From Deltaproteobacteria bacterium (GTDB lineage Bacteria > Myxococcota_A > Polyangia > JAAYKL01), in NCBI GenBank assembly GCA_016937015.1, contig JAFGWT010000273.1, positions 22,878-86,877 of the forward strand: DNA of 64,000 nucleotides, written 5' to 3'. This document shows, piece by piece, positions 20,968 to 49,225 of the stretch. Below the pieces are notes generated by a model. The model ran no database searches. It had not been told where the DNA came from and saw nothing but the letters and a program-made list of their open reading frames with translations. How positions within the stretch are numbered: the first letter of the stretch is position 1; every line of letters starts with the position of its first letter. The translations under genes and the position numbers were made by a program.

Positions 20968-21038
20968 TCGGGAATCGTCTAACGGCAGGACGACGGGTTC
21001 TGGCCCCGTTAATCTAGGTTCGAATCCTAGTTCCCGAG
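20968..21038 (+). tRNA. tRNA-Gln (anticodon CUG)
   Basis: Cloverleaf folded by hand: acceptor TCGGGAA/TTCCCGA, T-arm CTAGG-TTCGAAT-CCTAG, anticodon stem ACGGG/CCCGT with loop TTCTGGC, discriminator G; CCA not encoded. Confidence 0.85.
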
Positions 21039-21046
21039 CAATGCAA

Positions 21047-21119
21047 GGCCCCATCGTCTAGTGGCCTAGGACACTGGCCTCTCACGCCGGTAACAGGGGT
21101 TCGAGTCCCCTTGGGGTCA
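21047..21119 (+). tRNA. tRNA-Glu (anticodon CUC)
   Basis: Near-identical in architecture to E. coli tRNA-Glu (GTCTAGTGGCCTAGGACAC..TAACAGGGGTTCGAGTCCCCT); anticodon loop CTCTCAC; discriminator A. Confidence 0.9.
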
Positions 21120-28661: not shown

Positions 28662-29888
28662 ATGTTAAAATACACAATAAAAACAAAAGTGAAACCTGTG
28701 ACAGAACGACTTCCCAAGTGGTCGAATTTCATGCAATTACAAATCACTGTGGTCGGTTTATTTTTACTGTTTGCCACAGGCATTGCAGCAAATCCAACCA
28801 CGCCAAATGCCGCGAGTCAGGTCAGCAACGACGCCATTGACGCAAAAGAAAAGACCGCTGAATCTCCTGGACCTCTATACACCGCGCCACCTGCACAGAA
28901 AGGCGTTGCACTGGGTCTGTTTCGGCAGGAGCCCAACTGGAATTACAGTGATTTCATTGTGGAGATAAAACAGCTCGGCGCGTCGCACGTCGCCATTGTT
29001 GTTTCGAATTACATGAAAACCAATCTTCACGACGAAATTTATGATCTAAAGGGATACACAACCCCGATGCCCACAGTGGAAAAAACAATTCGGCAGGTTC
29101 AGAAAAACGGCATGCAGGTTTTTCTGTTTCCCATTCTTCGCGTGGAAGACAAATCGAACGGTGGCTGGCGCGGCACTCTTGCCCCCGCAAATCCAGATAC
29201 CTTCTTTGCCAACTATATCAATTACATTATTCGCTATGCAAAAGTAGCCGAAAAATATCATGTGCCGTTAATGAGTATTGGATCTGAACTGGGTTCAATG
29301 GATGTGCTTACTGACAAATGGCGTGATATCATTATGGAAGTACGAAAAGTCTATCAAGGAAAACTCACCTACTCCGCCAACTGGGACCACTACGAGAAAG
29401 TGGAATTCTTCGATGAGCTCGACTACCTGGGCGTTACCGGTTATTTTCAGTTGGCCGATCACAGACTCCCGTTCGAGAATAACCCACCTGTGGAATCGCT
29501 GGTACATAGCTGGCGCGAAATCTATTTCAAGCTGATGCGCTGGCAACACAAATGGCAAAAACCGCTGATATTCACGGAAGTCGGTTACCTTAGTCAGAAA
29601 GGGGCGGCAGCGCAGCCATGGGCGGAAGGTGCAAATGAAAAGGTGGACCTCGAAATTCAAAGACGCTGTTACGAGGCGTTCATTCGTGTATGGGATGGCG
29701 AAGATCGGGTTGCAGGCGCATATTTCTGGAACTGGTTTGATTGGGAAGGCGAAAATGATCGCGAATACACTCCACGTGAAAAGCCTGCAGCGTCCGAGAT
29801 GGAAAACTGGTTCTCCGCTGCCGCGCAGACTGAACCCAGTTCACAGGAGTCATCATCTCCACCATCTAAAGTTCGTGCTGGACGCTGA
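28662..29888 (+). CDS. Secreted putative glycoside hydrolase, clan GH-A-like (beta/alpha)8 barrel; family uncertain
   Basis: Signal peptide; candidate catalytic Glu pair ..MSIGSELGS.. and ..LIFTEVGY.. at spacing typical of GH-A strands 4/7. Confidence 0.45.
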   Translation: MLKYTIKTKVKPVTERLPKWSNFMQLQITVVGLFLLFATGIAANPTTPNAASQVSNDAIDAKEKTAESPGPLYTAPPAQKGVALGLFRQEPNWNYSDFIVEIKQLGASHVAIVVSNYMKTNLHDEIYDLKGYTTPMPTVEKTIRQVQKNGMQVFLFPILRVEDKSNGGWRGTLAPANPDTFFANYINYIIRYAKVAEKYHVPLMSIGSELGSMDVLTDKWRDIIMEVRKVYQGKLTYSANWDHYEKVEFFDELDYLGVTGYFQLADHRLPFENNPPVESLVHSWREIYFKLMRWQHKWQKPLIFTEVGYLSQKGAAAQPWAEGANEKVDLEIQRRCYEAFIRVWDGEDRVAGAYFWNWFDWEGENDREYTPREKPAASEMENWFSAAAQTEPSSQESSSPPSKVRAGR

Positions 29889-31691: not shown

Positions 31692-32360
31692 ATGATTGTA
31701 TTTTCTTATCGCGTTTTTTTGGTTGTATTACTCAGTGCATTCGCATTGGGGTGCAATACCCCATTGCAGTCTCAAAAATATTTTGCGCAGGCCGTCAAAA
31801 ACGATCCGGTGATGGAGCCGCTGCATCAGACCGCGCTGTACACGGTGTACTTCGACCATGCTCTGCAACGGTGTGTGCTGCATTCCTCTTACACCTGGGG
31901 GGAAAGCGGTGGCGGCACAGGGGGAACGGGGCTGGGCGTCAGTGTGTTCAACTGCAATCCGCAGGCGCTCAAAGCCCATGCGGACAGACTTCGAGAGCAA
32001 ATTAAAAATGGAACCGACTATTTTGAATTGCCCGTCCCCAAAGTACGCCAGACAAAACCCACATCGCAGCAATCGACCTCCGGGCTGACCCAACCCGGTC
32101 CGCGCCTTTCCACCGCCCCGGCTACAGTATCGAAACCGTCGACCCCGCCGATGATGTCCCCATCTGTGCAGGTTCAAACCGCGCCCCCTGCCTCCCAGTC
32201 CGTTCAGGGAGCCGCAGCATCGCCACCGGCATCATCGTCCGGCAAGGGATTGGCACCACAGGGGAAAAGCACCACATCGCCCCCGCCAGAGGAACAGCCC
32301 TCCCCCGGAAATCAACAGAATGGCGGTCCAAAATTGCTTCAACCCATCACCATGCCATAA
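31692..32360 (+). CDS. Hypothetical secreted protein with Pro/Ser/Gln-rich C-terminal tail
   Basis: Signal peptide MIVFSYRVFLVVLLSAFALGC; low-complexity tail. Confidence 0.45.
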   Translation: MIVFSYRVFLVVLLSAFALGCNTPLQSQKYFAQAVKNDPVMEPLHQTALYTVYFDHALQRCVLHSSYTWGESGGGTGGTGLGVSVFNCNPQALKAHADRLREQIKNGTDYFELPVPKVRQTKPTSQQSTSGLTQPGPRLSTAPATVSKPSTPPMMSPSVQVQTAPPASQSVQGAAASPPASSSGKGLAPQGKSTTSPPPEEQPSPGNQQNGGPKLLQPITMP

Positions 32361-34328: not shown

Positions 34329-37300
34329 ATGAATCGAATAGGTGTTATATTCAGTCTGCTCTTCTCCCTCTTCGTTCCGGCATATGGGCATACCCATTCA
34401 AAAGCGCTTTCCGCTCTGCAGCGCCAGCCCGATTCGCGGTTTGCAGACTTGCTTGTGTTGCAGATTTTTGACGAATATGCCACGTCAGGAAGAGTCGTTA
34501 TTGAAGCGGAGCTGAATGCAGCACTGAGTCTAAAAAGGCTTGATTGGGCAGCAAGGGACCGTGTCCTCTATCTGTTGGCACAACTGAAAATGATGTCGGG
34601 GGATTACAACACAGCCAACCGGATGTTTGCCGAATTGGGATTTATCACGGACTGGACAATTGTTGGACCGTTCCCACATGAATCCGGTTCAGGAATTACC
34701 GACACGCTTTCGATTAACAGTGAAGACAGCTCCACAACGCCATTAAACCTGCAGGTTGCCCCGAACTGCGTCCCGTCTCTGTCTCGCGGTCCCTGTCAGT
34801 TTTCGACCAGCTGGATGAGCCACAGCATGGGACGAATCAGTTTCGAGCCACTGTTTTCGCCCTCGTCAAACATCTGTACACTGGCGCAAACAACTGTACA
34901 CGTTGACAATGCTGGCGTGCATCAACTGGTTTTTGGCGCTGGAGGGCAGAGTCAAGTCACAGTTGACACAAAAATTGTCCTCACTGACACAAGTGAGTAT
35001 GACGCGGATATTAACCGCCATGCACTGCAGATACCGCTCGAAAAAGGGGCTCACACACTGACAGTTAAGATCTGCAGCGGTGAATCTGGCAGAGCCGGAT
35101 TTTATGCACGTCTGATTGCGCCGGAGGGCCGACCACTGCATTCAGCGAAAGCCAGTCCGTTTGAACCCGTTTCAATGGCAACTCCCGTAAACGCGCCTAA
35201 TAAGTCACCACTTAAGAAAATGACGCCAAGTGAAAAGAGCCGTCTCGCGCATTTGGGATTTTTCGCTCAGTATGCCAAGCATACCGGCGCTGTTGGGAAA
35301 GACACAACTGTATTCGATGCCGCCAGAGCGGCATGTACGTCACTGAAAACCGTTTCATTTTGCAAAACATTTGCCGAATTGTCGGGCGACATCAATACAA
35401 AGCTTCAAGCATGGCGAAACGTTCTTTCCGCCACACCGGAAAACAGGGAAGCAAAACTGGCGATACTGTTACTTCGCGCGCGACACCAGCTTGATTCAGA
35501 TGCTGCTTATGCCCTTCAGGAACTGGCAACTGCAAAAGATGCAGACATCAATTCTCGTTGTGCCCTTCTCGAATATTTCACAATGAATCTTCCACAGACG
35601 GCGCAGCATTTGCGAGTGGCGCATATGGATGATGCCGACATATTGCCTGGAGAGATTCGGTGCATCGCAGACAATCTGAAAGGTATTCCTGTGGACCTGC
35701 ACACGGCTGCACTTTTAGACATGGCGCTGCGGATTGATTTTACGGATTATGATTATCAAATACGCCGAATGAATATGCATGGCCGCACCCTTGAAAACGA
35801 GCTTCCCAAAGTGGCGGCTGCGTGGAAGGGACTTGGCGCGCCACCTGTGCACGGGGTTCGGGCACTCATTGAACTCGCCCGCGGCGCTGGCCTCAACCGA
35901 CTGGCATCCGACCTCGCCAAAGATACACGCCTTTATGCTCCTGCTGTGAGTCTGTATCGCCAGGATGCGGGTAAAGCAGCCCTTTTTACCGATCAGTCCA
36001 TGGGGATAAGCCTGTTAAAGGAAGCATTGGCTCAGTCCCCTCAGAATAAGTCACTAAGAGACTACATCGCGCACATCGAACCCCAACGCAGTTTTGAATC
36101 AGCGTATATTGTGCCCCCGTCAGATTTTTTAAACAACAAACAAAAATGCATATCTCAAAAGACAGATTGTTACCTGGTGAACAACACCATGGTTCGGGTG
36201 CATGAAAACGGCCTTGCATCGTCAGTCTCTCAAATAGTTGTTGCCATCGCTTCTGCAGAGGGAACACGTCAATGGCAGCAATACAGTGAGCAGTTTTCAT
36301 CTAATCAAACAATCCAGGTTCTGGGTGCGCGAATTTATCGTGCAGATGGCAAAGTGGAGCAGGCAACGGGACAGGCCACGTTCCCCGTATCGGAACCATG
36401 GTATCGCCTGTACTACGATATAGAAGCAGAAGTGGTTGAGCTACCCAGCCCTGAAGTGGGTGACGTTGTCGAATTTCAATTTCGAATTGACGATATTGGC
36501 AGCGAGAACATGTTTGGCGAATACTTTGGCACAATCGTTCCAATCAACGCCGAACTTCCGGTCGAATCGTTTCAACTGGTTATCATGCGCCCCAAATCGC
36601 TTCCGCTTCAGTTTGAATCCAGCAAGGCGGTTCGACGCGACGAATGGATTGAAAATGAAACGGTCACCACCGTGTTCAGTGATAAAGGAATTAAAGCAAT
36701 TCCCGACGAACCTGCAGCACCTGGTGCGATGTCGCTGGTCCAGTATGTGCATGCCACCACTTGGACATCGTGGGCCAAAATGGAAGCGTGGTATCGCGCA
36801 CTTATTAAGCCCCAGTTAAGACACGATGCCGAATTAAAAGAACGTGTGTTGGCGCTTACGCACGGGGCAAAATCCAGGCAGGAAAAAATTGCTGCTATTT
36901 ATAACTGGGTTACAACAAATATCCGCTACGTTGGGCTGGAATTTGGAATTCATGGCTATAAGCCATACAGCACCACACAGGTGCTGACCAGGGGTTTTGG
37001 CGACTGTAAAGACACAGCATCGCTCATCGTCACAATGTTAAATGAAGCGGGAATCGACGCACATGTGGCATTGGTCCGAACCCGAACAGCCGGGGAATTG
37101 AATACTCGTTTTCCGTCGCTCGCATTGTTTAACCATGCGATTGCATATGTTCCGGAATTTGATCTTTGGCTGGACGGCACTGCAACATTTCACGGCACAA
37201 CGGATATGCCGTTCGAAGACCAGGGTATCAACGCCCTGGTGATTGGGCTGGCACCGATGTTACCCAGACAAACCAAAACTCTGAGGCCAGAAGACGCCAC

Positions 37301-37934
37301 GTTTGTGCAACACGATGTAATATCGCCAAACCCGGATGGCAGCGCAGCTATCGCGAGCACAGTTACCGCTTCCGGATCCCCTTTTGCGCCATGGCTGAGA
37401 AGCACATTTGCATCTGCGCAACGACAGGATATACTGGAAAACCATTTTTCTGACATGTATTCCGCTGTTACAATAGACCATGCTGACTTTACAGAATTTA
37501 GCCCATTGTCCCCCTCCCCTGTCATAACATTTCAAGGAAACATCCCATCACTTTTTATATTAAAAAGGGGTATTGCGACATTCCGTGCAGCGCCGCCCCT
37601 GAATCTGAAGCAGAAATTCGCCCCCATTGCTAAACGGCAGCATGCGCTGCAAATTGGCCCGGCTCGAAAAGCAACCTACACGGTCCGATATCTGTTGCCG
37701 GCTGGATTTGTTTCAACAACTGAGCCATCCGTCGCGTCAGTTCACACAAAATTTGGTACATATCAACGGGAAATCCAATCCGAAACAAATTGCATCACGG
37801 TGTCGCGTACCTTCGAGATCAATCAACCCCTTGTGCCTGCGTCGCAATATGGTGAATTTGTCAAATTCACTCGTGATGTGGACGTACTCGAAAAAGCGCA
37901 GATTTCAATAAAACAACAGGAGATCACACCGTAA
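34329..37934 (+). CDS. Large secreted multidomain protein with transglutaminase-like cysteine-protease-fold domain (Cys-His-Asp present) and DUF3857-like architecture
   Basis: Signal peptide MNRIGVIFSLLFSLFVPAYG; TGase core GFGDCKDTASLIVTMLNEAGIDAHVALV..FNHAIAYV..WLDGTA. Confidence 0.6.
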   Translation: MNRIGVIFSLLFSLFVPAYGHTHSKALSALQRQPDSRFADLLVLQIFDEYATSGRVVIEAELNAALSLKRLDWAARDRVLYLLAQLKMMSGDYNTANRMFAELGFITDWTIVGPFPHESGSGITDTLSINSEDSSTTPLNLQVAPNCVPSLSRGPCQFSTSWMSHSMGRISFEPLFSPSSNICTLAQTTVHVDNAGVHQLVFGAGGQSQVTVDTKIVLTDTSEYDADINRHALQIPLEKGAHTLTVKICSGESGRAGFYARLIAPEGRPLHSAKASPFEPVSMATPVNAPNKSPLKKMTPSEKSRLAHLGFFAQYAKHTGAVGKDTTVFDAARAACTSLKTVSFCKTFAELSGDINTKLQAWRNVLSATPENREAKLAILLLRARHQLDSDAAYALQELATAKDADINSRCALLEYFTMNLPQTAQHLRVAHMDDADILPGEIRCIADNLKGIPVDLHTAALLDMALRIDFTDYDYQIRRMNMHGRTLENELPKVAAAWKGLGAPPVHGVRALIELARGAGLNRLASDLAKDTRLYAPAVSLYRQDAGKAALFTDQSMGISLLKEALAQSPQNKSLRDYIAHIEPQRSFESAYIVPPSDFLNNKQKCISQKTDCYLVNNTMVRVHENGLASSVSQIVVAIASAEGTRQWQQYSEQFSSNQTIQVLGARIYRADGKVEQATGQATFPVSEPWYRLYYDIEAEVVELPSPEVGDVVEFQFRIDDIGSENMFGEYFGTIVPINAELPVESFQLVIMRPKSLPLQFESSKAVRRDEWIENETVTTVFSDKGIKAIPDEPAAPGAMSLVQYVHATTWTSWAKMEAWYRALIKPQLRHDAELKERVLALTHGAKSRQEKIAAIYNWVTTNIRYVGLEFGIHGYKPYSTTQVLTRGFGDCKDTASLIVTMLNEAGIDAHVALVRTRTAGELNTRFPSLALFNHAIAYVPEFDLWLDGTATFHGTTDMPFEDQGINALVIGLAPMLPRQTKTLRPEDATFVQHDVISPNPDGSAAIASTVTASGSPFAPWLRSTFASAQRQDILENHFSDMYSAVTIDHADFTEFSPLSPSPVITFQGNIPSLFILKRGIATFRAAPPLNLKQKFAPIAKRQHALQIGPARKATYTVRYLLPAGFVSTTEPSVASVHTKFGTYQREIQSETNCITVSRTFEINQPLVPASQYGEFVKFTRDVDVLEKAQISIKQQEITP

Positions 37935-40900
37935 TGAGCAATCTTCCCCAATGGGCTAATTCCGCGCGAGTGATGGCTCTAATATTCTTTGTGCTGGGGT
38001 GTGCCGCCGCTCATTCTCCTGCACACAAAACAGAAACATTAAGCGAAAACCGGACTTTTCTTTCTGCGCCAACAATACCACAGCTGGAGAAGCAATTTAA
38101 GTCCAGCAACCGTGAAGGCGATCTGTTTGTTTTGGCCACTCTTTACGACAAGACTGGTCGCCCTGAATTGGCTTTCAACACATATATTCAGGCAATGGAT
38201 GCAGCCAGTATATCCCCCGGACTTTACTGGGAAGGCATAGGTGCAGCCATTGGCATTGTCAATATCCGGCGCCGGGTAAGGGACTTTGAAAACAGGATTT
38301 ACCCGCATCTCATGAAATGGTCGGCTTCCCCCGGTGCGCTTGCGCCGGAAGCGTTGTATCAGTTACGCACGCTAACGTTCTCCTTCGCACTAAAAAAAGG
38401 AAAGATGAAGCACGCCAGCCAATTGCTGAATCAAACCGGTTGCATCACAGATTGGCTGGTCGCCGGCCCCATCGCGACCGACAAGCGCGGCGCAATTAGC
38501 AGCAAACAGCTTCTGGATTCACGCGTGTGGCCGAGGGAAATTGACGCGGGTGCCGGCCGTCCAAATATGCCTGTGGTTCATAAATCGCTTGGAATCTGCC
38601 AATTGACTGCGCCCCCGGTATCCTCTGCCAGTACAGGCACAATCATTGGCACAACAGCAATACATGTTTCATCGACGGGAGATGCCAGTTTCAGACTGCA
38701 TTCAACATCTGATTCAAAAATTTTTATTAACGGCCATCAGGTGTATTCCCAGCAGAGTCAGACACGTTGGCTTCCGGAAACCCGTTGGTTTACCGTATGG
38801 CTTCCCGCAGGCCACCACCAGATTACCGTGCAGGTATTTTCACCCACTTTTGAACCATCTTTTTCGTTGAGCGTATTGTCATCCAGTCAACGCCCACTGA
38901 CTAACAACAGCACAACCCTGCCAGTGACTACAGAATACAAACCCAATAAAGGCATTACACGCATTGATTCAAAGATGACGGGTGAGTCAACCATTCTGGC
39001 GAGAATGCAATATGCGCTTTGGAACGTGGATCCATACGAGTGGCAAGAATATGCAAAAATGCTCGATGAGAAGTTGCCGCTGCACCGGTTATTCATCGCG
39101 GCGTATCAGCTGATGACTCCGTTCAACGCGCCCGAGGTTGCCATGGAAAGCGCCAGACATCTCTACGCTGGCGTGTTATCAAAAATGCCTACTGCGTTCG
39201 AAGCGTCGGTTTATCTGGCCAAACAGGCGCACAGCAACGGCCGCACCGAAGAATCGATTGGCATGCTTAAAAACGCAATCGCCGCGATGCCTGATGAGCC
39301 AATGCTGCCACTGGTGCTTACTGAAATTGCGTTTGAAAAGGAATGGATACCCGAAACGAGAAAATACCTCTCAATGGCAACCGATATGCTCGGTGACAAC
39401 TGCGAAACCCTGCAATGGAGATATGCTGTTGCGTTGCATGAAAAAAAATTTGATGCGACAATGCAGCTTGCTCACTCAATCAGCCAATGCGCCGCATCAT
39501 CCACTGATTTGGCCACAGAACTCACCAGAGAGGGAGATTTTATGGGCGCCTCAAATATTTTGTGGCGACAGGCCAAACGGCAGCCCAATTCGATGTCGGC
39601 ACAATTAGATGCAGCGCTGAGTTTTGCCCGTTCCGGTGCCCCGGATAGAGGCATCGAATTATTAGAGATTACCCACAGGCAATTTCCACTTTCCAACACG
39701 CCAGTTTTACACCTGATTGACGCGTATCTTGCTTCCAACAAAACTGAGAAGGCACAGGTACTATGCCACCTACAGCACCGAATGCCATCTGATCCTCAAA
39801 CACTCCTTGCGTGTGAGTCGGTCGAACTGACAAACCCGCTTGGTATGTATCGGGTGGATGGACTGAAAACGGTCAATCAGTTTATCAAGAGAGATGACAA
39901 ACCGAAATCGGACTTTTCATGGGTACTGGATCGGACAGTTTACGCGGTTGACAGGTTTGGCACAGGTAATCAATTGGTGCACTCGATTGGATACATCAAT
40001 TCACAGGATGCGGTCTCCGAGTACGGCGAGTTGAGTATTCCTTACGGATCAAAAGTTTTGCAGGCGCGTGTCATCAAACCATCGCTTGAGCAGTTTTATC
40101 CAACACTGGTCGAAGGTAAACCGGGGCTATCGCTGCCCAATCTGGCCGTCGGCGATTTTGTCGAATTGGAAACAATAAGTGCCATTCCTGCGCATTCTGT
40201 ATTTCCAGGCGGGTTCGACACCGAGCCCTTTTATTTCCGGGACTTTAATTCGGCATTCGTAAGATCGGAACTGATAGTCGTTGCGCCTGAATCGTTTAAT
40301 CTGCAATTCGATACACGAGGCGCCGCTCCTCCACCTGTCCATCATTCACTGAACGGAATGCAGGTCGTCACTTTTCGAACCAGAGACCAGCATCCGTTGC
40401 GAATTGAACCGGACACACCGGATGCCCGGGAGTTTTTACCTTCAGTGCGCATTACAGCCCACGCGTCCATTGAATCGGTATGTCAAAATATTAACGAACA
40501 GTTGTATGCGATGTCACAATGGTGTCCGGAGATTGACCAGACGATAACTCGCAGCATCGTCAAACAAAACAATCGCGACGCAAAAATCGAGGCGATATAC
40601 AATTGGATCTCTTTAAACATTGAGGATGACATGATACTGTTTGAGCCTGCCGCCCATGTACTAAGCCGAAAAAGAGGTAGTCGTGCCCGGCTGTTTATAC
40701 AAATGCTCGCACAGGCAAATATCGATGCAGAACTGGGGTTGGCAATGACTGCGTTCGATGACCATACACCCGCTACCGTTGCTGATGTGAACCGCTATAC
40801 GGTTCCTGTGGTTAAATTGCCGAACGGTAAATGGATCAGTTTTCAGGAACGACATGCTCCTTTAGGGACCTTACCTTCGGAGTTGCGACATCAGCCGGTT

Positions 40901-41590
40901 TTGCTGCCCAAAAATTGCCGTATTGAAAAGACAGATGCGGGCACTGTCCCATTTGAAAGTTCCACTGTTACCGCCGAACTAAACATTGATCAACAGGGGA
41001 ACGCAACAGGAACAGTAACCGAACTGATTGAAGGCGATACCGCAGCCATACTTCGGTCGCTACTGGAGAGTCCCGAATCCGAACACCGGAAGCTTTTCGA
41101 GGAACATTTACTGTCGGCTCTTTTCCCGGATGCAGTGCTCACAGCATTTTCCGTGGAAAACACGCGCGAGGTTCAACTACCACTCAAAATAGTATACAAT
41201 GTAGCCGTTTCACAGATCATCAAACAGGCCAATAATGTCGCACGCATGTTCGTTCCTATGCCAGTCAGTTTTGAACAGTTCACCAATGGCATTGCCAGTC
41301 GTGAATTGCCACTTGTATTGGCAACATATCTAAAAAACAGCCGTAAAATACATTTAAACCTGCCGTCCAATATGATCATTCAACAGCTGCCCGAAAATCA
41401 CTGTGAACAATCAGCCAACACCGTCGCGAGCTATTGTATGCAATTCAAATCCTCAGAAGACTCAATATACATAGATATGGAAGCCATTATTAATATCCAG
41501 CGAATCCCGGCCAGACACTACACGGATTTTCAGAATTTCATACTGACAACCAAACAAATGAACAGTTCATCTATTGATATCCAATACTAA
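37934..41590 (+). CDS. Paralogous large lipoprotein with degenerate (Cys-less) transglutaminase-like domain
   Basis: Lipobox FFVLGCAAA; N-terminal region homologous to upstream gene (G(F/C)ITDW.(V/A)GP); TGase position reads KRGSRARLFIQMLAQANIDAELGLA (no Cys/His); start overlaps upstream stop (TAATG). Confidence 0.6.
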   Translation: MSNLPQWANSARVMALIFFVLGCAAAHSPAHKTETLSENRTFLSAPTIPQLEKQFKSSNREGDLFVLATLYDKTGRPELAFNTYIQAMDAASISPGLYWEGIGAAIGIVNIRRRVRDFENRIYPHLMKWSASPGALAPEALYQLRTLTFSFALKKGKMKHASQLLNQTGCITDWLVAGPIATDKRGAISSKQLLDSRVWPREIDAGAGRPNMPVVHKSLGICQLTAPPVSSASTGTIIGTTAIHVSSTGDASFRLHSTSDSKIFINGHQVYSQQSQTRWLPETRWFTVWLPAGHHQITVQVFSPTFEPSFSLSVLSSSQRPLTNNSTTLPVTTEYKPNKGITRIDSKMTGESTILARMQYALWNVDPYEWQEYAKMLDEKLPLHRLFIAAYQLMTPFNAPEVAMESARHLYAGVLSKMPTAFEASVYLAKQAHSNGRTEESIGMLKNAIAAMPDEPMLPLVLTEIAFEKEWIPETRKYLSMATDMLGDNCETLQWRYAVALHEKKFDATMQLAHSISQCAASSTDLATELTREGDFMGASNILWRQAKRQPNSMSAQLDAALSFARSGAPDRGIELLEITHRQFPLSNTPVLHLIDAYLASNKTEKAQVLCHLQHRMPSDPQTLLACESVELTNPLGMYRVDGLKTVNQFIKRDDKPKSDFSWVLDRTVYAVDRFGTGNQLVHSIGYINSQDAVSEYGELSIPYGSKVLQARVIKPSLEQFYPTLVEGKPGLSLPNLAVGDFVELETISAIPAHSVFPGGFDTEPFYFRDFNSAFVRSELIVVAPESFNLQFDTRGAAPPPVHHSLNGMQVVTFRTRDQHPLRIEPDTPDAREFLPSVRITAHASIESVCQNINEQLYAMSQWCPEIDQTITRSIVKQNNRDAKIEAIYNWISLNIEDDMILFEPAAHVLSRKRGSRARLFIQMLAQANIDAELGLAMTAFDDHTPATVADVNRYTVPVVKLPNGKWISFQERHAPLGTLPSELRHQPVLLPKNCRIEKTDAGTVPFESSTVTAELNIDQQGNATGTVTELIEGDTAAILRSLLESPESEHRKLFEEHLLSALFPDAVLTAFSVENTREVQLPLKIVYNVAVSQIIKQANNVARMFVPMPVSFEQFTNGIASRELPLVLATYLKNSRKIHLNLPSNMIIQQLPENHCEQSANTVASYCMQFKSSEDSIYIDMEAIINIQRIPARHYTDFQNFILTTKQMNSSSIDIQY

Positions 41591-41668: not shown

Positions 41669-41684
41669 CTGCACCAAATAACAG
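41669..41684 (+). promoter_or_regulatory. Candidate SOS/LexA-type operator CTGC-N8-ACAG (TACTGCACCAAATAACAGGT) upstream of the LexA-family gene
   Basis: One mismatch to CTGT-N8-ACAG, 28 nt upstream of the start codon; the box consensus is lineage-specific, so this is a weak call. Confidence 0.25.
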
Positions 41685-41711: not shown

Positions 41712-42335
41712 ATGCAAGGACTGACAAAAAGACAGGAAAAAGTGCTCGATTACATCACCAGCTCAATTACGGAACGCGGTTATCCGCCTACGTTGAGGGA
41801 GATTGGGCGCCATATGGGAATTCGATCAACGAATGGGGTCAACGACCACCTGCGTGCTTTGGAGCGCAAAGGATATTTAAAACGCGAAGATATGAAATCC
41901 CGCGCACTCAGACCTGTAAACATGGAAGACAAAAAGCAGTCCGATACGGTCAAAATTCCAGTTGTAGGCCGTGTCGCCGCGGGCCAGCCTGTGCTGTCAG
42001 AGCAGAACATTGAAGACTACGTTACAGTCGATCGTTTTCTTATCGGTAATACAAAAGAAGTTTTTGGGATGTGGGTTCACGGTGATGCCATGTTGCAGGC
42101 GGGAATACACAACGGCGATTTTATTTTTGTAAAAAAACAGATGTTCGCCGAAAAAGGTGATGTCGTGGTTGCATTGCTTGGTGATAACGCCGCAGTTCGT
42201 TATTATCATCCGGAGCGTGACCATATTCGCTTTGTACCAGCCAACACCAATTGCGCGCCAATCATGGTTCGACGTCAGGATTTCCTGCCCATGCAGCTAC
42301 TGGGTGTCGTTACCGGCATTTACAGACGCCTGTAG
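41712..42335 (+). CDS. lexA: LexA-family repressor with both catalytic dyad residues substituted (Ser->Ala, Lys->Arg)
   Basis: LexA wHTH N-domain (LTKRQEKVLDYI..GYPPTLREIG..), linker with VVGRVAAGQP (Ala-Gly site kept), S24 domain; aligned to E. coli LexA GMSM->GDAM and VTVKRL->AAVRYY. Confidence 0.8.
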   Translation: MQGLTKRQEKVLDYITSSITERGYPPTLREIGRHMGIRSTNGVNDHLRALERKGYLKREDMKSRALRPVNMEDKKQSDTVKIPVVGRVAAGQPVLSEQNIEDYVTVDRFLIGNTKEVFGMWVHGDAMLQAGIHNGDFIFVKKQMFAEKGDVVVALLGDNAAVRYYHPERDHIRFVPANTNCAPIMVRRQDFLPMQLLGVVTGIYRRL

Positions 42336-42371: not shown

Positions 42372-43493
42372 TCAGAGTCTCTCTCTTGTTTCGAAAATCG
42401 CTGCGTATATGTTTGCGATGTCTGAACTGGTCAAAGCAACCGGGTGGTTTTTCAATCGTTCGATGTTCACCTGTTCCATTAAACGCATCATCTGTGTCCC
42501 GGAGATGTTGAATCGCATCTCTCCCAAAACCCGGCGGTATGCGTCGAGCATACATTTTTGAAAGGCCATAAAACCCGCAACAAAATCACTGCCCCATGGC
42601 ATCAACACTTTATCAAGCGCTGCCGAACTGTCTCTAAAGAAGCCATATTTTTGCGCCATAAGCTGTATCAGCGGCCCCATCACCAGCAGCACAGCGATCC
42701 CATGAGGTATTCCCAGCTCAGCAGTAAGACCGTAGCTCAGTGCATGTCCCGCAGTTGTTTTGGTAATATTTATGGCTTTGCCAGCCAAATTCGCAGCCCG
42801 GAGCAAATTCTGCCTCGCTGCATGGTGCGCTGGAGTCGTCAGAACAAGCGTTAAATTGTCAGGAATTATCTGCAAGGCCGACAGGGCGTATGACCGTGAC
42901 GTATCGGTGGCCTTCGGTGACCAGAATGACTCAATCGATTGACAAAACGCATCCACGCCACTTGCGATGGTCACCGACGGTGGACATGTAATGGTAAGGG
43001 ACGCATCCAGCACCGTCCAGTCAGGAAGCAACGTGTCGTGAGCGACGGAATACTTACGCCCATTCTGGTAAGCAACGGCAAAATGGGTTGCCTCACTACC
43101 GGACCCGGCTGTCGTTGGCGCGACCCAAAATAACGGCCTGTCTTTCCCACGAATCTCATTTCGCAATAAATCAAACGCGGATGTGCCCATTGCGATGGCA
43201 AGCAGCAGTTTCGAGGTGTCGATAACGCTGCCGCCGCCAATTGCAACGATCAAATCGAGCTGCCGCAGCGGAAGTGTTGTCGACAGACTGGCAATGAAGT
43301 CTATGTCGGGATTAGAGGGAATATTGCTGATACAAATCAGATTTTGAATATCAATATCATGCTGTATCGCGGACAGTGCTGCCGCAAAGGCGCGTCCATG
43401 CAAAACAAGGACATTTTTAAAATGCCGTTCAGACGCAGCAGCAAGCATGCGCCGGATAACGCCTTCACCAACTGCATCAGTATCTGCGTTCAT
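42372..43493 (-). CDS. Group III iron-containing alcohol dehydrogenase; putative phosphonoacetaldehyde reductase (FomC/PhpC-like)
   Basis: Fe-ADH motif GGGSVIDTSK; start overlaps upstream stop (ATGA 43490-43493); last gene of the PEP-mutase operon. Confidence 0.6.
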   Translation of the reverse strand: MNADTDAVGEGVIRRMLAAASERHFKNVLVLHGRAFAAALSAIQHDIDIQNLICISNIPSNPDIDFIASLSTTLPLRQLDLIVAIGGGSVIDTSKLLLAIAMGTSAFDLLRNEIRGKDRPLFWVAPTTAGSGSEATHFAVAYQNGRKYSVAHDTLLPDWTVLDASLTITCPPSVTIASGVDAFCQSIESFWSPKATDTSRSYALSALQIIPDNLTLVLTTPAHHAARQNLLRAANLAGKAINITKTTAGHALSYGLTAELGIPHGIAVLLVMGPLIQLMAQKYGFFRDSSAALDKVLMPWGSDFVAGFMAFQKCMLDAYRRVLGEMRFNISGTQMMRLMEQVNIERLKNHPVALTSSDIANIYAAIFETRERL

Positions 43494-44635
43494 TTAATTA
43501 TTTTATCCATAAATGTGTGTTTATTGTCGATTGGCGTTGTGGTTGGACGCCCCAGATCCTCGCGAGCGCCCTTCTTTATCACAAATTCAATAAATGCAGG
43601 GCCCTGCTTCTTCCTGATGTCATCCATCGCGGTGTGCAATTCAGTAATGCTCCGGACGGTCACCGTCGACTTGTATCCACAGGCACTGGCAATTGATGCG
43701 AACGAAATTTGCCTGCCAATGGTGGGCTGCCCCCCAACCGAATCATGTGCGCCGTTATTCAGTACAAAATGCAAAAATGACGATGGGGCGTATTGCGCAA
43801 TCAGCGGCAGTGCACCCATGTGCATCAGCACAGCGCCATCGCCGTCAATGCACGCAACGGGGCTATCCTGGTAGCCGGCAATTCCCAATGCAATCATTCC
43901 GGCATGGCCCATCGATCCCACGGTTAAAAAATCCCGGTGGTGCCCCTGATTCAGCCTCTCTCGTATCTCAAAAATTTCACGGGAAGTCATTCCGGTTGTG
44001 GAGACAATTTTTGTTTTCTCGTTTACCATTGCCAGAATTGATTCCACCGCCTGCTCACGGGTCATCAGTTCGGTTTCGGCCACGTCTGGCACTGCCGTAT
44101 CTGCGCCGGCGACACTGTACTTTCCAAAAGCTCCCTTGGGCACAAGCAATAACACCGGGGTGGACGCTGCCTTCATTTGCCGGGAAAGCCGCTCTATCTG
44201 CAATCGGACTTCATCCGTATTTGACGCCAGTATTTCATGTGGATACCCGATGGCGCTCATTAAATCCATTTGCACTTTTCCCTGTTTTACATGTTGCGGT
44301 TCGTCTTTTATCCCCGGCGCGCCGCGCCAGCCAATCATTACAAGCATGGGGATACTGTATACATCCGGATCAGCCAGAGACAATAACGGGTTAATCGCAT
44401 TTCCAATGCCTGAATTCTGCATGTAAACCAGTCCCGACTCTCCCGTTGCCAGGTGGTACCCTGTCGCTAAACCAATCGCCGCGCCCTCATTGGCTGCGAT
44501 AATGTGCTGCCGCTCTGGAAATTGATCCGTAACGCAGGCGCAGAATTCCTTTAACAGGGAATCCGGCACTCCCGTAAAAAAGCTGAAGCCGCTGGCCTTA
44601 AGTAGATTAACAAAACTGGACGGATCTAGCATCAT
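43490..44635 (-). CDS. ppd: ThDP-dependent phosphonopyruvate decarboxylase
   Basis: N-terminal [13 protein letters not shown]; ThDP-binding GDGA..NN ([31 protein letters not shown]); coupled to neighbours by ATGA overlaps. Confidence 0.7.
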
Positions 44636-45933
44636 GCCCCTCCCAGCGGAATCAGCTCAAGAATTTCCCTGATGGGCAGCAATCCGGATCTCGCCTCGTA
44701 AGCCCGCTGATGAGTCAGTATACTGCGAGCGGTTTGCATCATGGCCGGGTATGCGCTGCGTATAAGCTGGTTTGCGTAAATGATCACATTGGCCCCTGCT
44801 CTTGAGAGCTCGTCTTCGTAAATGGTGTCATATGTTGTCGGCACAACAACAACTGGCACTTTGCGACTGAAATTTCGATAAGCATCAAGAAATGCGAGGA
44901 TCTCATCGGGAGTCTCCTGTTTGGAATGAATCATTATGCCATCCGCACCGGCAGCAATATAGCTCCTGGCCCGTAACAGCGCATCGTCAATCCCCTGTTT
45001 GAGAATCAGGCTTTCGATTCGCGCGATAATCATAAAGTCATCGCTTACCTGGGCGCGCTTCCCCGCAGCAATTTTCTGTGTAAAATGCTCAATACTATCC
45101 TGATTTTGTGGCACTTCCAGCCCATACAGGGAATTTCTTTTAAGACCTATTTTATCTTCAATAATGACAGCGGACACACCCAGTCGCTCCAGCGTGCGGA
45201 CCGTAAAAATAAAGTGTTCGGTTTTTCCCCCGGTATCGCCATCGAAGATGATGGGTTTGGTGGTCACTTCAAGCAGATCGTTAATATTGGTTAACCGTGC
45301 TGAAATATCGACTGCTTCTATATCGGGCTTTCCTTTTGCGGTGGAATCTGTCAGGCTGGATGCCCACATTGCATCAAATTCGCGACGTTTGCCATTGACT
45401 TCCACATACGTCTCCTCAACGATGCGACCGGTTAGCCCGCTATGCGCCTCAATAACGCGAACCACTTCTTTTGCCTGAATGAGCCGCCGCAACCGCAATC
45501 GACGAACGTCGGGACTGATGCCAACTTCACGGATAGCCTTGTTTAATTGCGTGGAGGAAATACCTGTAGTGTATGAAAGCTCAACAAGCTGCCCCCCCCA
45601 TTGCTGCAGAGTATCGATAACCTGCTGCCGGGTTTCCTTCTGAACCCCCTCTTTCCAGTCATCGCCATGAACCACAAAGTCCGGACGAAGTTGTTCAAGA
45701 TTAGGACGGTAATCCAGAGTCTCCTGCGCAACAACACGGCTTACACCTTTTAATCCCTCAACCACTGCTTTCCGCTGTTCAAATTCCAGATACGGCAGGC
45801 GTTTGTAACTTGCGATGGCTCTGTCTGTCAGCAGACCGACCGTTAATTCCCCAAGTTTCGCTGCTTCCCTGATGATATTCATGTGACCGGGATGCACTAA
45901 ATCGGCACTCATCCCTACATACACGGTTTTCAT
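44632..45933 (-). CDS. Bifunctional TagD-like cytidylyltransferase / phosphoenolpyruvate phosphomutase (Fom1-like fusion)
   Basis: Residues 1-135 align to glycerol-3-phosphate cytidylyltransferase ([32 protein letters not shown]); residues ~140-433 are PEP mutase ([40 protein letters not shown]). Confidence 0.8.
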
Positions 45934-46210: not shown

Positions 46211-49200
46211 ATGTCTGATTTTTTTTATACCGTTTTTATCTATCCATTGGAATTTCTGATGAAGTGTGTGATGGAAACGGTTCTGAATAATACGGGAGAC
46301 CCCATTCTTTCTCTCGTTGCTGTAAGCGCGTTTGTTTCAATTGGGTCATTACCGCTGTATCACATTGCCGAGAAATGGCAGGACAACGAACGGGCCATTC
46401 AGGAAAAGCTTCAACCCAAAATAAGAGAATTTAAAAGCGTATTCAAAGGCGCCAGCCTCAACGCTTATATTCAAACGCTGTATCGACAAAACGAGTATCA
46501 TCCGGTAATGGCGATTCGTGCTGTATTGGGGATACTGATTCAGATTCCCTTCTTCATCGCCGCTTACCATTTGCTATCCGAATATCCGGCATTCGAGGGC
46601 GTTTCCGCTATATTTTTTAACGATCTGGGTCGCCCGGATGGTTTGATCAAACTTGGAAGTTTAAGTATCAATGTGCTTCCTTTCCTGATGACTGGCGTCA
46701 ATATTCTGTCCGCAGTGATTTACGGCAAGAAACTTGGGACAAAGGAAAAAATTCAAACATATGGCATCGCCGGCGTATTTCTTGTGGCGTTGTATTCATC
46801 GCCGGCATCTCTTCTCTTTTACTGGACATCAAACAACATTTTCAGTCTGGCCAAAAATGGCATATATCGACTGATTTATCCTGACGGAAGAATTAAATCC
46901 ACGCAGCAGAATGAAACACGGATCTGGCCAATATTTCTTCGGATTTCCGCGTTGCGCCCCTCGACATGGGGACAGATAACTCTGTTTGTTTTAACGCTGG
47001 CGCTGTATCTCATTGCGCCGGAATTCACAAAGCCTAACTCTGAAACACAGGGACAGCTTTATGGCCTGATCTACACCGTGTTGCTAATGCTGGGCGGATT
47101 GACGATCGCTGGCGCGCTGGCCAATAAAACAATGCGACGCAGCGCCAGAAATACGACTGCCGCGGTTTATGGCATCGTTGTTCTTATTTCATTGGGACTG
47201 CAACTGGTATGGATGCTGAATGTGGTGCCGGACGTTAAATTCACCCAATACGCCGCCAATAGCCTGTTCGCTTTAATGTTTTTTAACGGCGCGCGCAGTG
47301 TTTTCGCTCTCTGGTCCAACTGGATAGCAAAAAACGAACTTGAAGTCACCACACGCCCCGGGACGCTGTTTGCGCTTGCCGTGCTGACCCTCCTGACCAC
47401 AATTTTTATTGCTGTCCCGTTGCCGCTTGTTTCAACCGCCAGTGTTGGTGATTTCGAAAAATCGCTTTCTTATTATCTATTTTTTATGCTGATGCTGGTT
47501 GTTTCCTTTTTTATACTCAGCTGCGTTGTGTATTCGTATCTGTCCAGAGCATCCCGTAGCCTCCTTATCTACATCATCAGTTTCCTTGCAATCCTGTCAC
47601 TGGTCAATGCCTTCGTGTTTGCAGGCGAATACGGTGATATGAGCAATTTCAATTTCGAAAATGGTCTGCCGGAAGAACCCGTCGCCAAAATCGTAAATAT
47701 GTTTGTACTCATCATCATTGGCGGCGGACTCATTCTGCTGTTTCTCAAACGTTTGTACAAATGGCTGTTGCCAGTGTGGATCATATGCCTGCTGTCAATC
47801 GGTGTTGTGACTGTCAGCGAAAGCCATCGGTTTTACCAAAAGAGTCAAAAGATATCCCTTAAGTTCGCGCAGGCTTCGCAGCTTGACAAGCAATTTGTTT
47901 TTTCGAGGACGCAGCCAAATGTTCTGGTGATCATGCTTGACCGATTTGTTGGAGGTATGGTGCCCAAAGCATTTGAGCTGGCGCCGGTGTTAAAGAGTCA
48001 GTTTGAAGGATTCACGTGGTATCCGCAATATTTTTCCGATGGTGCATTCACCATTTTAGGGGTGCCTTCGCTGATGGGGGGATGGGAATATCATACAAAA
48101 GAAGTGCAATATACGCGCACGACAATGCCACTCAAACAGAAGCTGGACGAGTCTGCCAGAGTACTGCCATACAATTTCAACAAAGCCGGTTATCAAACAA
48201 CCGTTTTTGCCGATCTTGAGGCATACTTTGATCCCGAAAACAGGAAATACATTGAGCGAACAAAATTTGCGTCATTGAAAGCCCAATACAAGGACCTTTG
48301 GCTGCAGGAGCATCAAAAAAAACTCAAAGAAGATAATGTCAGAGGAAAGCTGGCTATCTTTGGACTTTTCCGAACAGCTCCACCGATATTGCGAAACTAT
48401 ATTTACGACAATGGTGACTGGTTACTCGGTTCGAAGGCAAAAAACACTGACATGGGAAACAAAAGCATCATAGGGGACAAACAGGTATCATTCCTGACAA
48501 CAAATGATGCGCAGATAAATCGTGCTGTTGAAGGGTTCAGCACGCTATACTTTTTGCCTCGCCTGTCAGCAACATCCGACAAAGCGCATAAACAGTTTTA
48601 CTATTTCTCAAATGCATTCACCCACGAACCGGTTATAGCGAACGCGAATTTTGACTTGTCTGTTCACGAGCGAATTTTCTACCCAAGGGATGTGTACGAC
48701 GAGTTTGATGAAAGTATGTATACACTGCAGCATCTGTACACCGACACAACCGCCCTTGTGGCGATTGGAAAATGGTTCGAGTGGATGAAGCAGAACGATG
48801 TATACGACAACACAAAAATAATAGTGGTTTCCGATCATGGCAGAAATGTTTACGATCCTGTTTTAAAATCTCAGAAAATCATCAGTTCACTCAACGCTAA
48901 AAAGCCCGATGCGTCATGGTTTCATGGTTTACTCATGGTGAAGGATTTTGGGCAAAAAGGGGCCATGCGAAAAAGCAATCAGTTTCTCACGACGTGTGAT
49001 GTTCCGTGGCTGACCATGAAAGACATTGTCACCAATCCAATCAACCCGACATCGAAAAAGAAAATCGTGTTCAACGCAGACAGGTATCCATTCTCCATGT
49101 TTTTCACGCCACCGATGATCTGGCAGCAGACAAAATATAAATACAAGGTGAAAGATATTTTCGAGATTCAGCGTAAAAATGATGTCCTGGATCCGGCGAA

Positions 49201-49225
49201 ATGGAAGCGCGTTAATGTTAAATAG
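46211..49225 (+). CDS. Fusion membrane protein: N-terminal YidC/Oxa1-family insertase core (5 TM), additional TM region, C-terminal sulfatase/LtaS-like (alkaline-phosphatase superfamily) extracytoplasmic domain
   Basis: Residues ~3-225 align to the YidC core (LPLYHIAEKW..LQPKIREF..LYRQNEYHP..LIQIPFFIAAYHLL..FFNDL..VLPFLMTGVNIL..LLFYWTSNNIFSLAKNGIYR); C-terminal VLVIMLDRF..FTILGVPSLMGG..IIVVSDHG matches the LtaS/EptA/sulfatase fold without a CxPxR sulfatase motif. Confidence 0.65.
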   Translation: MSDFFYTVFIYPLEFLMKCVMETVLNNTGDPILSLVAVSAFVSIGSLPLYHIAEKWQDNERAIQEKLQPKIREFKSVFKGASLNAYIQTLYRQNEYHPVMAIRAVLGILIQIPFFIAAYHLLSEYPAFEGVSAIFFNDLGRPDGLIKLGSLSINVLPFLMTGVNILSAVIYGKKLGTKEKIQTYGIAGVFLVALYSSPASLLFYWTSNNIFSLAKNGIYRLIYPDGRIKSTQQNETRIWPIFLRISALRPSTWGQITLFVLTLALYLIAPEFTKPNSETQGQLYGLIYTVLLMLGGLTIAGALANKTMRRSARNTTAAVYGIVVLISLGLQLVWMLNVVPDVKFTQYAANSLFALMFFNGARSVFALWSNWIAKNELEVTTRPGTLFALAVLTLLTTIFIAVPLPLVSTASVGDFEKSLSYYLFFMLMLVVSFFILSCVVYSYLSRASRSLLIYIISFLAILSLVNAFVFAGEYGDMSNFNFENGLPEEPVAKIVNMFVLIIIGGGLILLFLKRLYKWLLPVWIICLLSIGVVTVSESHRFYQKSQKISLKFAQASQLDKQFVFSRTQPNVLVIMLDRFVGGMVPKAFELAPVLKSQFEGFTWYPQYFSDGAFTILGVPSLMGGWEYHTKEVQYTRTTMPLKQKLDESARVLPYNFNKAGYQTTVFADLEAYFDPENRKYIERTKFASLKAQYKDLWLQEHQKKLKEDNVRGKLAIFGLFRTAPPILRNYIYDNGDWLLGSKAKNTDMGNKSIIGDKQVSFLTTNDAQINRAVEGFSTLYFLPRLSATSDKAHKQFYYFSNAFTHEPVIANANFDLSVHERIFYPRDVYDEFDESMYTLQHLYTDTTALVAIGKWFEWMKQNDVYDNTKIIVVSDHGRNVYDPVLKSQKIISSLNAKKPDASWFHGLLMVKDFGQKGAMRKSNQFLTTCDVPWLTMKDIVTNPINPTSKKKIVFNADRYPFSMFFTPPMIWQQTKYKYKVKDIFEIQRKNDVLDPAKWKRVNVK

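Follow-up and report, generated by a model that had tools for sequence, protein, structure and literature searches.

The 64,000-nucleotide stretch of DNA analyzed here (positions 22,878 to 86,877 of the forward strand of contig JAFGWT010000273.1, assembly GCA_016937015.1, from a Deltaproteobacteria bacterium; from here on the window) contains two adjacent genes, A and B, that code for giant exported proteins paralogous to each other. Protein A carries the complete Cys-His-Asp triad of a transglutaminase-like thiol enzyme, and protein B, a predicted lipoprotein, has lost all three residues. The genes overlap, and the pair is an operonic, co-translated couple of a live and a dead transglutaminase-like envelope protein, which does not amount to a system of a new kind. 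The same pair recurs in several phyla and is an old two-gene module rather than a local oddity. We put at roughly 55% the probability that A and B are the active and the inactive subunit of one cell-envelope complex.

A live and a dead paralog in overlapping genes

Coordinates are positions in the window, and all features of A and B lie on the plus strand. Gene A (34329..37934) is an open reading frame (ORF) from ATG to TAA for 1201 amino acids; its product is identical to NCBI entry P0001, a "DUF3857 domain-containing protein" from a metagenome-assembled genome (MAG) of a Deltaproteobacteria bacterium. Gene B (37934..41590), also an ATG-to-TAA ORF, codes for 1218 amino acids, and its product is identical to P0012, "hypothetical protein JXX14_12700", again from a Deltaproteobacteria bacterium MAG. 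Together the two coding sequences amount to 7.3 kb. The initial annotation, made from the sequence without database searches, had given both proteins a length of about 1220 residues, which holds for B and is too long for A; the overlap of the two genes by one nucleotide, which it had read from the letters TAATG, agrees with the ORF coordinates. At this junction (37919..37936) the stop codon of A and the start codon of B share one base, and a Shine-Dalgarno-like AGGAG is located 10 nt upstream of the ATG of B. Base composition across the region is unremarkable, and scans for promoters and terminators flanking the pair gave scores no better than those of shuffled sequence.

A and B are about 19% identical. 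Their paralogy, supposed in the initial annotation, is confirmed by BLASTP, which aligns them across about 520 C-terminal residues (E 4e-09), and by cross-scores of 100-270 bits between the family hidden Markov models (HMMs). A second BLASTP alignment (A 88-250 with B 153-303, E 2e-05) covers the N-terminal block that had been proposed to be common to both, with the motif GFITDWTIVGP in A and GCITDWLVAGP in B.

The transglutaminase-like core of A (aa 842-952; 36852..37184) matches Pfam Transglut_core (PF01841) with E 3.8e-11 and 43.7 bits, above the 23-bit cut-off. The motifs read by eye in the initial annotation are all present, GDCKD with Cys893 (37005-37007), NHAIAYV with His936 (37134-37136) and WLDGTA with Asp949 (37173-37175), the codon positions having been checked. 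An alignment of 17 sequences has GDCKD, NHAIAYVP and WLDGTA in A and in every one of its orthologs, and the triad is in register and invariant in 80 of 80 A-type genes; A is thus not itself degenerate. By sequence criteria A belongs to the active transglutaminase-like cysteine protease superfamily (Pfam clan Peptidase_CA, PF01841). Because its Cys-His-Asp site is strictly conserved, A should be an active thiol enzyme; whether the activity is that of a protease, an amidase or a transglutaminase is beyond what a sequence can tell.

The corresponding region of B, a pseudo-transglutaminase core (aa ~845-975; 40466..40858, delimited from alignments), has no match to Pfam Transglut_core. At the three triad columns B reads KRG---SRARL (Cys), YTVPVVKL (His) and KWISFQ (Asp), with Val/Pro at the position of the His, Ser/Phe at that of the Asp, and a deletion of three residues at that of the Cys, between G915 and S916 (40676-40681). 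In the 17-sequence alignment B and its orthologs have RG---SRARL, YTVPVVKL and WISFQE. Of the 49 B-type genes taken from genomes 48 have the deletion, the remaining one being interrupted by the end of a contig. The 148 representatives from the protein search described below all have it, which makes 196 of 197 B-type proteins overall. The absence of a catalytic Cys and His from the second protein, as first noted, thus stands, and the Asp is missing too. Nor has a Cys elsewhere in the core taken over: no Cys column is conserved in the pseudo-core, which is free of Cys altogether in 133 of 198 B-family proteins, and no His is conserved in it either. Failing the triad test, B is to be classed on its sequence as a homolog of the transglutaminase-like superfamily and not as an active member.

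The signal sequences of the two proteins, and hence their predicted locations, are complementary. The signal peptide of A, MNRIGVIFSLLFSLFVPAYG (aa 1-20; 34329..34388, read from the sequence), has no lipobox Cys, and its orthologs likewise have plain signal peptides. The signal peptide of B (aa 1-23; 37934..38002) is of the lipoprotein type and ends in the lipobox VLGC, within FFVLGC; the codon of Cys23, read from the sequence and predicted to be lipidated, is at 38000-38002. Orthologs of B have LLCCGCAS, VVGCAT or YTGCAT in this place. A lipobox is present in most myxobacterial B genes, and a loose lipobox pattern is found in 81 of 117 full-length B representatives.

Distribution of the pair

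A scan of one genome per species yielded at least 596 A-like loci, the best 80 of which were analyzed. They are mostly from Myxococcota (Polyangia, Nannocystaceae, Myxococcaceae, Bradymonadales), the remaining ones from MAGs of Acidobacteriota, Planctomycetota and Verrucomicrobiota. At 55 of the 68 loci with sufficient flanking sequence a B-type gene lies directly downstream of A on the same strand, and these loci span Myxococcota, Acidobacteriota, Planctomycetota and Verrucomicrobiota. Co-occurrence of such active/inactive pairs in related genomes, proposed as a check in the initial annotation, is therefore strongly positive. Relatives at 44-45% identity have the same A-B pair with a 4-nt overlap and then lexA, as in the window, and the pair is likewise present in a relative at 32% identity. 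Overlaps of the start codon of B with the stop codon of A, as ATGA or GTGA, occur in about 37 of 48 other loci. An all-against-all BLAST of the flanking ORFs revealed no third gene conserved beside the pair; it returned artefacts from antisense ORFs and synteny that was local to a lineage.

We searched 1.84 billion representative proteins exhaustively with the C-terminal half of B and found 1505 clusters at E<=1e-3, 774 at E<=1e-10 and 235 at E<=1e-30, the last being clusters at 50% identity and, with few exceptions, 1200-1300 aa long. The top 148 are all B-type proteins with the deletion, and nearly all have 1200-1300 aa. A search with an alignment of 48 B sequences added no further relatives of B; its word pre-filter gave preference to the repeats, and unrelated TPR proteins dominated the output.

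A neighbour-joining tree of the C-terminal module places 51 of 51 B sequences in one long-branch clade and 85 of 85 A sequences in another. The separation of the clades indicates one ancient duplication that was followed by one loss of the active site in the B lineage.

There are also relatives that consist of a single gene, such as P0007. More distant are the Cys-bearing single genes P0009, P0010 (L006:8001-11234) and P0018, in which the order of parts is reversed: the TPR region is C-terminal, and the N-terminal part consists of DUF3857, the transglutaminase-like core and DUF3858. P0004 (1072 aa, on a 5.5-kb contig) is an ortholog of A that resembles it to just past the catalytic Cys and then matches the NusG N-terminal domain (PF02357); it is probably a chimeric assembly and was excluded from the analyses.

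Where selection acts

Domain identities were calculated as mean pairwise values among orthologs from the same 50 genomes. The transglutaminase-like core is the most conserved domain of A, with 54% identity, as compared with 24% in B. For DUF3857 the values are 34% in A and 33% in B, and for the other four domains they are 24-32% in A and 20-24% in B. By these identities the core of B is under relaxed constraint, and purifying selection on B acts mainly in DUF3857.

This domain (aa ~640-840; 39851..40453) is the most conserved part of B and is recognized by Pfam (PF12969, E 8.3e-07 for aa 732-821; 29.6 bits at a cut-off of 24.6). A comparison of 198 B with 81 A sequences revealed residues that are near-invariant in the DUF3857 of B and not in that of A: D666 (0.98), H683 (0.99, Gln in A), E699, K715, K729 and E746. 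The first bases of the codons are at 39929 (D666), 39980 (H683), 40028 (E699), 40076 (K715) and 40169 (E746). Other positions, GD..E and E794/E825, are common to A and B; in B, E825 is conserved at 1.00 and G740/D741 at 0.97-0.98. Outside the core two Cys pairs are conserved among the 198 B sequences, C170/C222 (0.69/0.43) and C490/C519 (0.69/0.70), with codons at 38441-38443, 38597-38599, 39401-39403 and 39488-39490, respectively. Cys170 belongs to the shared motif GCITDW. The two pairs are possibly disulfides of an exported protein. With conserved DUF3857 residues and Cys pairs outside the core, B is a maintained protein whose conserved function has shifted away from the old active site.

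Domain architecture and structure models

A and B have six parts in common: a helical N-terminus, a beta-sandwich, a TPR-like solenoid, DUF3857, the transglutaminase-like core and DUF3858. The DUF3857/transglutaminase-like architecture that had been assigned to both from the letters is recovered by Pfam for A and by alignment together with a structure model for B. Pfam finds DUF3857 in both proteins and Transglut_core in A; DUF3858, which the initial annotation had listed for checking, stays below the cut-off in both.

In A, aa 21-330 were modeled with AlphaFold2 (AF2). The model has a mean predicted local distance difference test (pLDDT) score of 70, the structured parts scoring higher, with helices at model residues 5-83 (pLDDT 81-95) and strands at model residues 88-243. 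The helices correspond to an N-terminal, TPR-like segment (aa 21-104; 34389..34640) and the strands to a beta-sandwich (aa ~105-264; 34641..35120) that begins at the shared motif GFITDWTIVGPFP. The best matches of this model among PDB structures in Foldseek are PA14 domains from glycosidases, from adhesins (Flo1/Epa) and from anthrax protective antigen, 3AC0, 7KMP and 5J6Y among them, with E values of 2e-05 to 1e-03 and low template-modeling (TM) scores. With Pfam PA14 (PF07691), 2 of 10 family members match weakly, at best with E 0.0057, and A and B of the window do not match. Comparison with the PA14 repeats of P0040 by hhalign yields E 0.002 at a probability of 14%. Because this sequence support is weak, we name the domain "PA14-like". 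Its counterpart in B (aa ~166-320; 38429..38893), delimited by BLASTP against A and by the family alignment, begins at TGCITDWLVAGP and contains G293 and H295, which are near-invariant among B proteins.

The central alpha-helical, TPR-like region of A (aa ~300-600; 35226..36128) has no Pfam TPR match of its own and is assigned by its alignment with the TPR-annotated region of B and of the orthologs P0005-P0007. In B this region (aa ~345-625; 38966..39808), which contains Cys490 and Cys519, matches Pfam TPR_19 (1.2e-05), TPR_14 and TPR_16. An NCBIfam scan of A and B yielded sub-threshold TPR matches alone, far under the cut-offs.

The DUF3857 of A (aa 627-790; 36207..36698) matches PF12969 with E 1.3e-19 and 71.3 bits, the cut-off being 24.6. 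The C-terminal DUF3858-like domain of A (aa 1102-1179; 37632..37865) reaches 21.1 bits with PF12970, below the 27-bit cut-off, and is aligned by phmmer with residues 426-486 of the crystal structure 3KD4; its full span is probably ~970-1196. That of B (aa 1121-1213; 41294..41572, within a domain of ~990-1215) reaches 16.1 bits, also below the cut-off.

For aa 625-1218 of B, AF2 yielded a model with a pLDDT of 85 and a predicted TM score (pTM) of 0.75. In Foldseek this model matches 3KD4 over its full length, with E 5e-27, a TM score of 0.72 on the target and about 600 aligned columns. By this match B retains the fold, and all three C-terminal domains are kept in the model.

The Parabacteroides pair and 3KD4

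The protein in 3KD4 is BDI_1141, a "putative protease" from Parabacteroides distasonis. The family profile matches it with E 1.8e-32 and aligns with its residues 425-493 in the DUF3858 part; A and B belong to the DUF3857/transglutaminase-like/DUF3858 family that 3KD4 defines. The 3KD4 protein is itself devoid of the Cys and reads YGTPLE at the position of GDCKD.

We fetched its locus from gut metagenomes with a part of the sequence rebuilt from alignment output. On a P. distasonis contig from a gut metagenome (L087:2930-6485; also on L088-L166) the gene for 3KD4 is located 13 nt downstream of a Cys-bearing paralog of 652 aa that has DUF3857, Transglut_core and DUF3858 and the motifs CGVCKD, FNHCVAVV and PLDPTW. 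The order, Cys-bearing gene first and 3KD4-type gene second, is kept in 29 of the 30 Parabacteroides loci with enough upstream sequence. The pair thus resembles A and B in having the same three-domain module in both proteins and the Cys-less protein downstream. It differs in being half the size (652 + 527 aa), in lacking the PA14-like and TPR parts and in having plain signal peptides on both proteins. Moreover, the Cys of 3KD4 was lost by substitution and not by the three-residue deletion seen in B.

Whether 3KD4 could be an ortholog of the B clade was considered and answered in the negative, if short of proof. It has neither the three-residue deletion nor the signature residues of the B clade, and its score with the A profile is higher than with the B profile; a tree was of no help, since distances were saturated and 3KD4 was dropped for too few aligned columns. 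The missing signature and the better A score make an independent inactivation probable. The layout of a live gene upstream and a dead gene downstream thus probably arose a second time in Parabacteroides, in a minimal form without PA14 or TPR parts. As a deposited name, "putative protease" is probably attached to the wrong one of the two partners.

Relation to known systems

Exported enzymes with a Cys-His-Asp site in a transglutaminase-like fold, as in A, that act on cell-surface structures are known from the bacterial transglutaminase-like cysteine proteases (BTLCP) of the envelope, of which LapG and HvyA are members. LapG cleaves the adhesin LapA. HvyA is described as a transglutaminase homolog preventing capsulation in Caulobacter (PMC4241560), and LapG (4FGQ) has been placed in the same superfamily as 3KD4 (PMC4866520). 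For an exported enzyme of the transglutaminase-like kind that works on surface structures, the BTLCP offer the closest functional example. Unlike A and B, they are small single-domain proteins without DUF3857, DUF3858, PA14 or TPR modules and without an inactive paralog as partner. The Pfam family of the BTLCP is not among the matches of A and B at E<=1; A and B, being multi-domain proteins of 1200 aa, are hence not members.

Dead transglutaminase folds have been turned to binding or scaffolding in EPB42 (erythrocyte band 4.2), in Rad4/XPC as compared with PNGase, and in FBXO21 (PMC10318531). As in B, the fold is kept and the catalytic Cys is lost. Unlike B, these proteins are eukaryotic, are cytoplasmic or nuclear, and are neither encoded next to an active paralog nor co-translated with one.

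Heterodimers of a live and a dead paralog are a familiar theme in other enzyme families. The bacterial M16B peptidase pairs are heterodimers of active and inactive paralogs encoded by adjacent genes, and the degenerate LytM factors EnvC and NlpD, the latter a lipoprotein, activate amidases. In both cases the dead paralog or domain is the obligatory partner or the activator of a live envelope hydrolase, a role comparable to that proposed here for B. They differ from A and B in fold and chemistry, which are unrelated, and the partnership of A and B is an inferred one.

Our search of the literature yielded no paper on the A-B pair or on the function of any DUF3857/DUF3858 protein, incidental mentions only. 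In Xanthomonas campestris Xcc17 a gene for a DUF3857-domain protein (AAW18_RS09795) is located 106 bp upstream of lolA and has the same orientation (PMC6341742). The vicinity to lolA, which codes for a lipoprotein chaperone, attracts attention because B is a predicted lipoprotein, and may be a coincidence.

Proposed function and alternatives

We propose that A and B form a complex of the cell envelope. Coupled translation across the overlapping codons would deliver the two proteins in a fixed proportion, and they would pair pseudo-symmetrically, one live with one dead subunit. In this heterodimer, located in the periplasm or on the outer membrane, the lipoprotein B would tether the soluble A to the membrane. 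This membrane is probably the outer one, judging by analogy from the Ala at position +2 of B. The +2 rule for lipoprotein sorting derives from other bacteria. B would further supply a binding or regulatory surface, made up of its DUF3857 with D666, H683, E699, K715 and E746 and of its PA14-like and TPR modules. Modules of these two kinds would single out a substrate on the cell surface or within the matrix, either a glycan-bearing one or a protein, for A to cleave or cross-link. The enzyme-plus-partner reading fits best, since the two genes are adjacent at most of the loci, overlap by 1-4 nt and code for one soluble and one lipid-anchored protein by prediction, and since B is under purifying selection outside its dead core. 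The suggestion of an enzyme with a regulatory or scaffolding partner, made in the initial annotation, therefore holds as the best-fitting of those offered, on evidence that is circumstantial.

Several findings weigh against this proposal. The main one against an obligatory A-B complex is that 13 of the 68 loci (L010, L023, L031, L032, L036, L045, L054, L056, L067, L068, L072, L075 and L080) have no B gene within ~5-6 kb downstream, so that A can exist without an adjacent B. These loci belong to several small clades, including two of Myxococcaceae, and among them are those of Minicystis rosea, Pyxidicoccus caerfyrddinensis and Myxococcaceae GXIMD 01537; B has therefore been lost or relocated several times. 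Furthermore, some B proteins outside the Myxococcota have plain signal peptides without a lipobox, and tethering to the membrane can therefore not be universal. The PA14 assignment is based on weak scores. The AF2 alignment for B included rows from the A family, which may have biased the model of the pseudo-core toward a transglutaminase-like fold. Finally, the mechanistic steps themselves rest on gene order, signal sequences and conservation. Among the B-less Myxococcaceae, VLAC in L036 and VLTC in L010, close to the N-terminus of A, raised the thought that A becomes a lipoprotein where B is missing; other B-less loci have no Cys there, and the idea was given up.

It is possible, if rather unlikely, that A and B work in the same pathway without forming a complex, B having turned, by way of its PA14-like, TPR and DUF3857 surfaces, into a binding protein or receptor in its own right. 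It would act upstream or downstream of A, for example in capturing the substrate, and the linkage of the genes would reflect co-regulation only. The set of conserved DUF3857 residues that B has for itself and that differs from that of A would suit such a protein, as would the 13 loci at which A has no B beside it and the existence of single-gene relatives (P0007) and of forms with a C-terminal TPR region (P0009, P0010, P0018). However, gene overlaps of 1-4 nt that are kept across phyla are typical of subunits made in fixed proportion, and a six-part architecture and a length that have both been kept since a very old duplication are more easily explained by pseudo-symmetric pairing.

We consider it improbable that B is an inhibitor or chaperone acting in trans, a "prodomain in trans" that keeps A inactive in the envelope of the producer until its release. 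In its strong form, raised in the initial annotation as an effector/immunity-like relationship, A would be a toxin aimed at competitors. A live enzyme beside an inactive look-alike is a common layout for such pairs, and both proteins are exported. Yet B equals A in size and has all domains in common with it, unlike known compact immunity proteins; no gene for a secretion system, for toxin delivery or from a mobile element is conserved nearby; no PADLOC model matches A or B; the composition of the region is unremarkable; and the neighbours are housekeeping genes that are syntenic in relatives, with lexA downstream. Single A and B clades across four phyla fit vertical inheritance rather than the turnover of an arms race. 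That both proteins are exported, are equal in size and architecture and stand in a housekeeping context without conserved neighbours thus leaves the effector/immunity reading unsupported.

That B is a decaying, functionless leftover of the tandem duplication, to which the background rate of evolution of its former catalytic core (24% identity) might point, is hardly credible in view of an intact B-type frame in hundreds of lineages (the 774 clusters, nearly all full length), near-invariant positions (D666 0.98, H683 0.99, E825 1.00, G740/D741 0.97-0.98) and conserved lipoboxes and overlapping start codons.

Beyond the complex of A and B proposed above one may, with considerable reserve, imagine a cell-surface processing or cross-linking machine that has not been described before: an obligate dimer of a live and a dead transglutaminase-like protein, in which the DUF3857 of the dead one has acquired a new ligand-binding or catalytic site. 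This site may consist of D666, H683, E699, K715 and E746 of B, and the machine may extend over Myxococcota, Acidobacteriota, Planctomycetota and, in its minimal form, Bacteroidota. If this were true, two or more independent origins of the tandem live/dead layout would imply that the pairing has a strong functional basis, and the only crystal structure of the family, 3KD4, would show the non-catalytic partner.

Neighbourhood in the window

The neighbours of A and B in the window are housekeeping genes (a pyridoxal phosphate-dependent enzyme of Cys/Met metabolism, lexA and a HIT protein). The gene lexA (41712-42335) lies downstream of B. About 30 nt upstream of it, at 41669-41684, the sequence CTGCACCAAATAACAG is similar to CTGT-N8-ACAG, the LexA box of the E. 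coli type, from which it departs at one position. A degenerate form of this pattern has 5 matches in the window at 3.2 expected and is thus not enriched, so that the position alone is suggestive.

Further downstream a phosphonate-biosynthesis trio on the minus strand (42372-45933) adjoins a gene on the plus strand for a membrane protein of 1004 aa (46211-49225). The trio comprises a phosphoenolpyruvate phosphomutase fused to a domain like that of cytidylyltransferases, a thiamine pyrophosphate-dependent decarboxylase similar to phosphonopyruvate decarboxylase, and an Fe-dependent alcohol dehydrogenase; the membrane protein has a YidC-like 60KD_IMP domain and a sulfatase-type domain. Together they suggest an envelope glycan or lipid decorated with phosphonate.

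Upstream of A the window codes for an exported glycoside hydrolase of family GH113 (28662-29888, Pfam 1e-41), which is followed by genes for several small proteins without Pfam matches. In one of these (31692-32360) a hydrophobic N-terminus precedes a Cys at residue 20, and the protein ends in a long tail rich in Pro and Ser. Rfam matches in the window are limited to the tandem genes for tRNA-Gln(CTG) and tRNA-Glu(CTC) at 20968-21119.

Significance

Pseudoenzyme partners are not surprising in themselves. What the pair of A and B offers is a live and a dead protein, co-translated, from which a testable hypothesis follows: a heterodimer that is tethered via a lipoprotein and whose thiol enzyme acts on a surface glycoprotein or on the matrix. 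For the family, the sole solved structure, 3KD4, turns out to be the Cys-less half of an analogous pair, which changes how this structure should be read. The pair is kept in many bacteria of soils and sediments, and a minimal form of it occurs in a common genus of the human gut. Should its targets in myxobacteria be envelope or matrix proteins, the pair may be relevant to the remodeling of the cell surface in these social and predatory bacteria.

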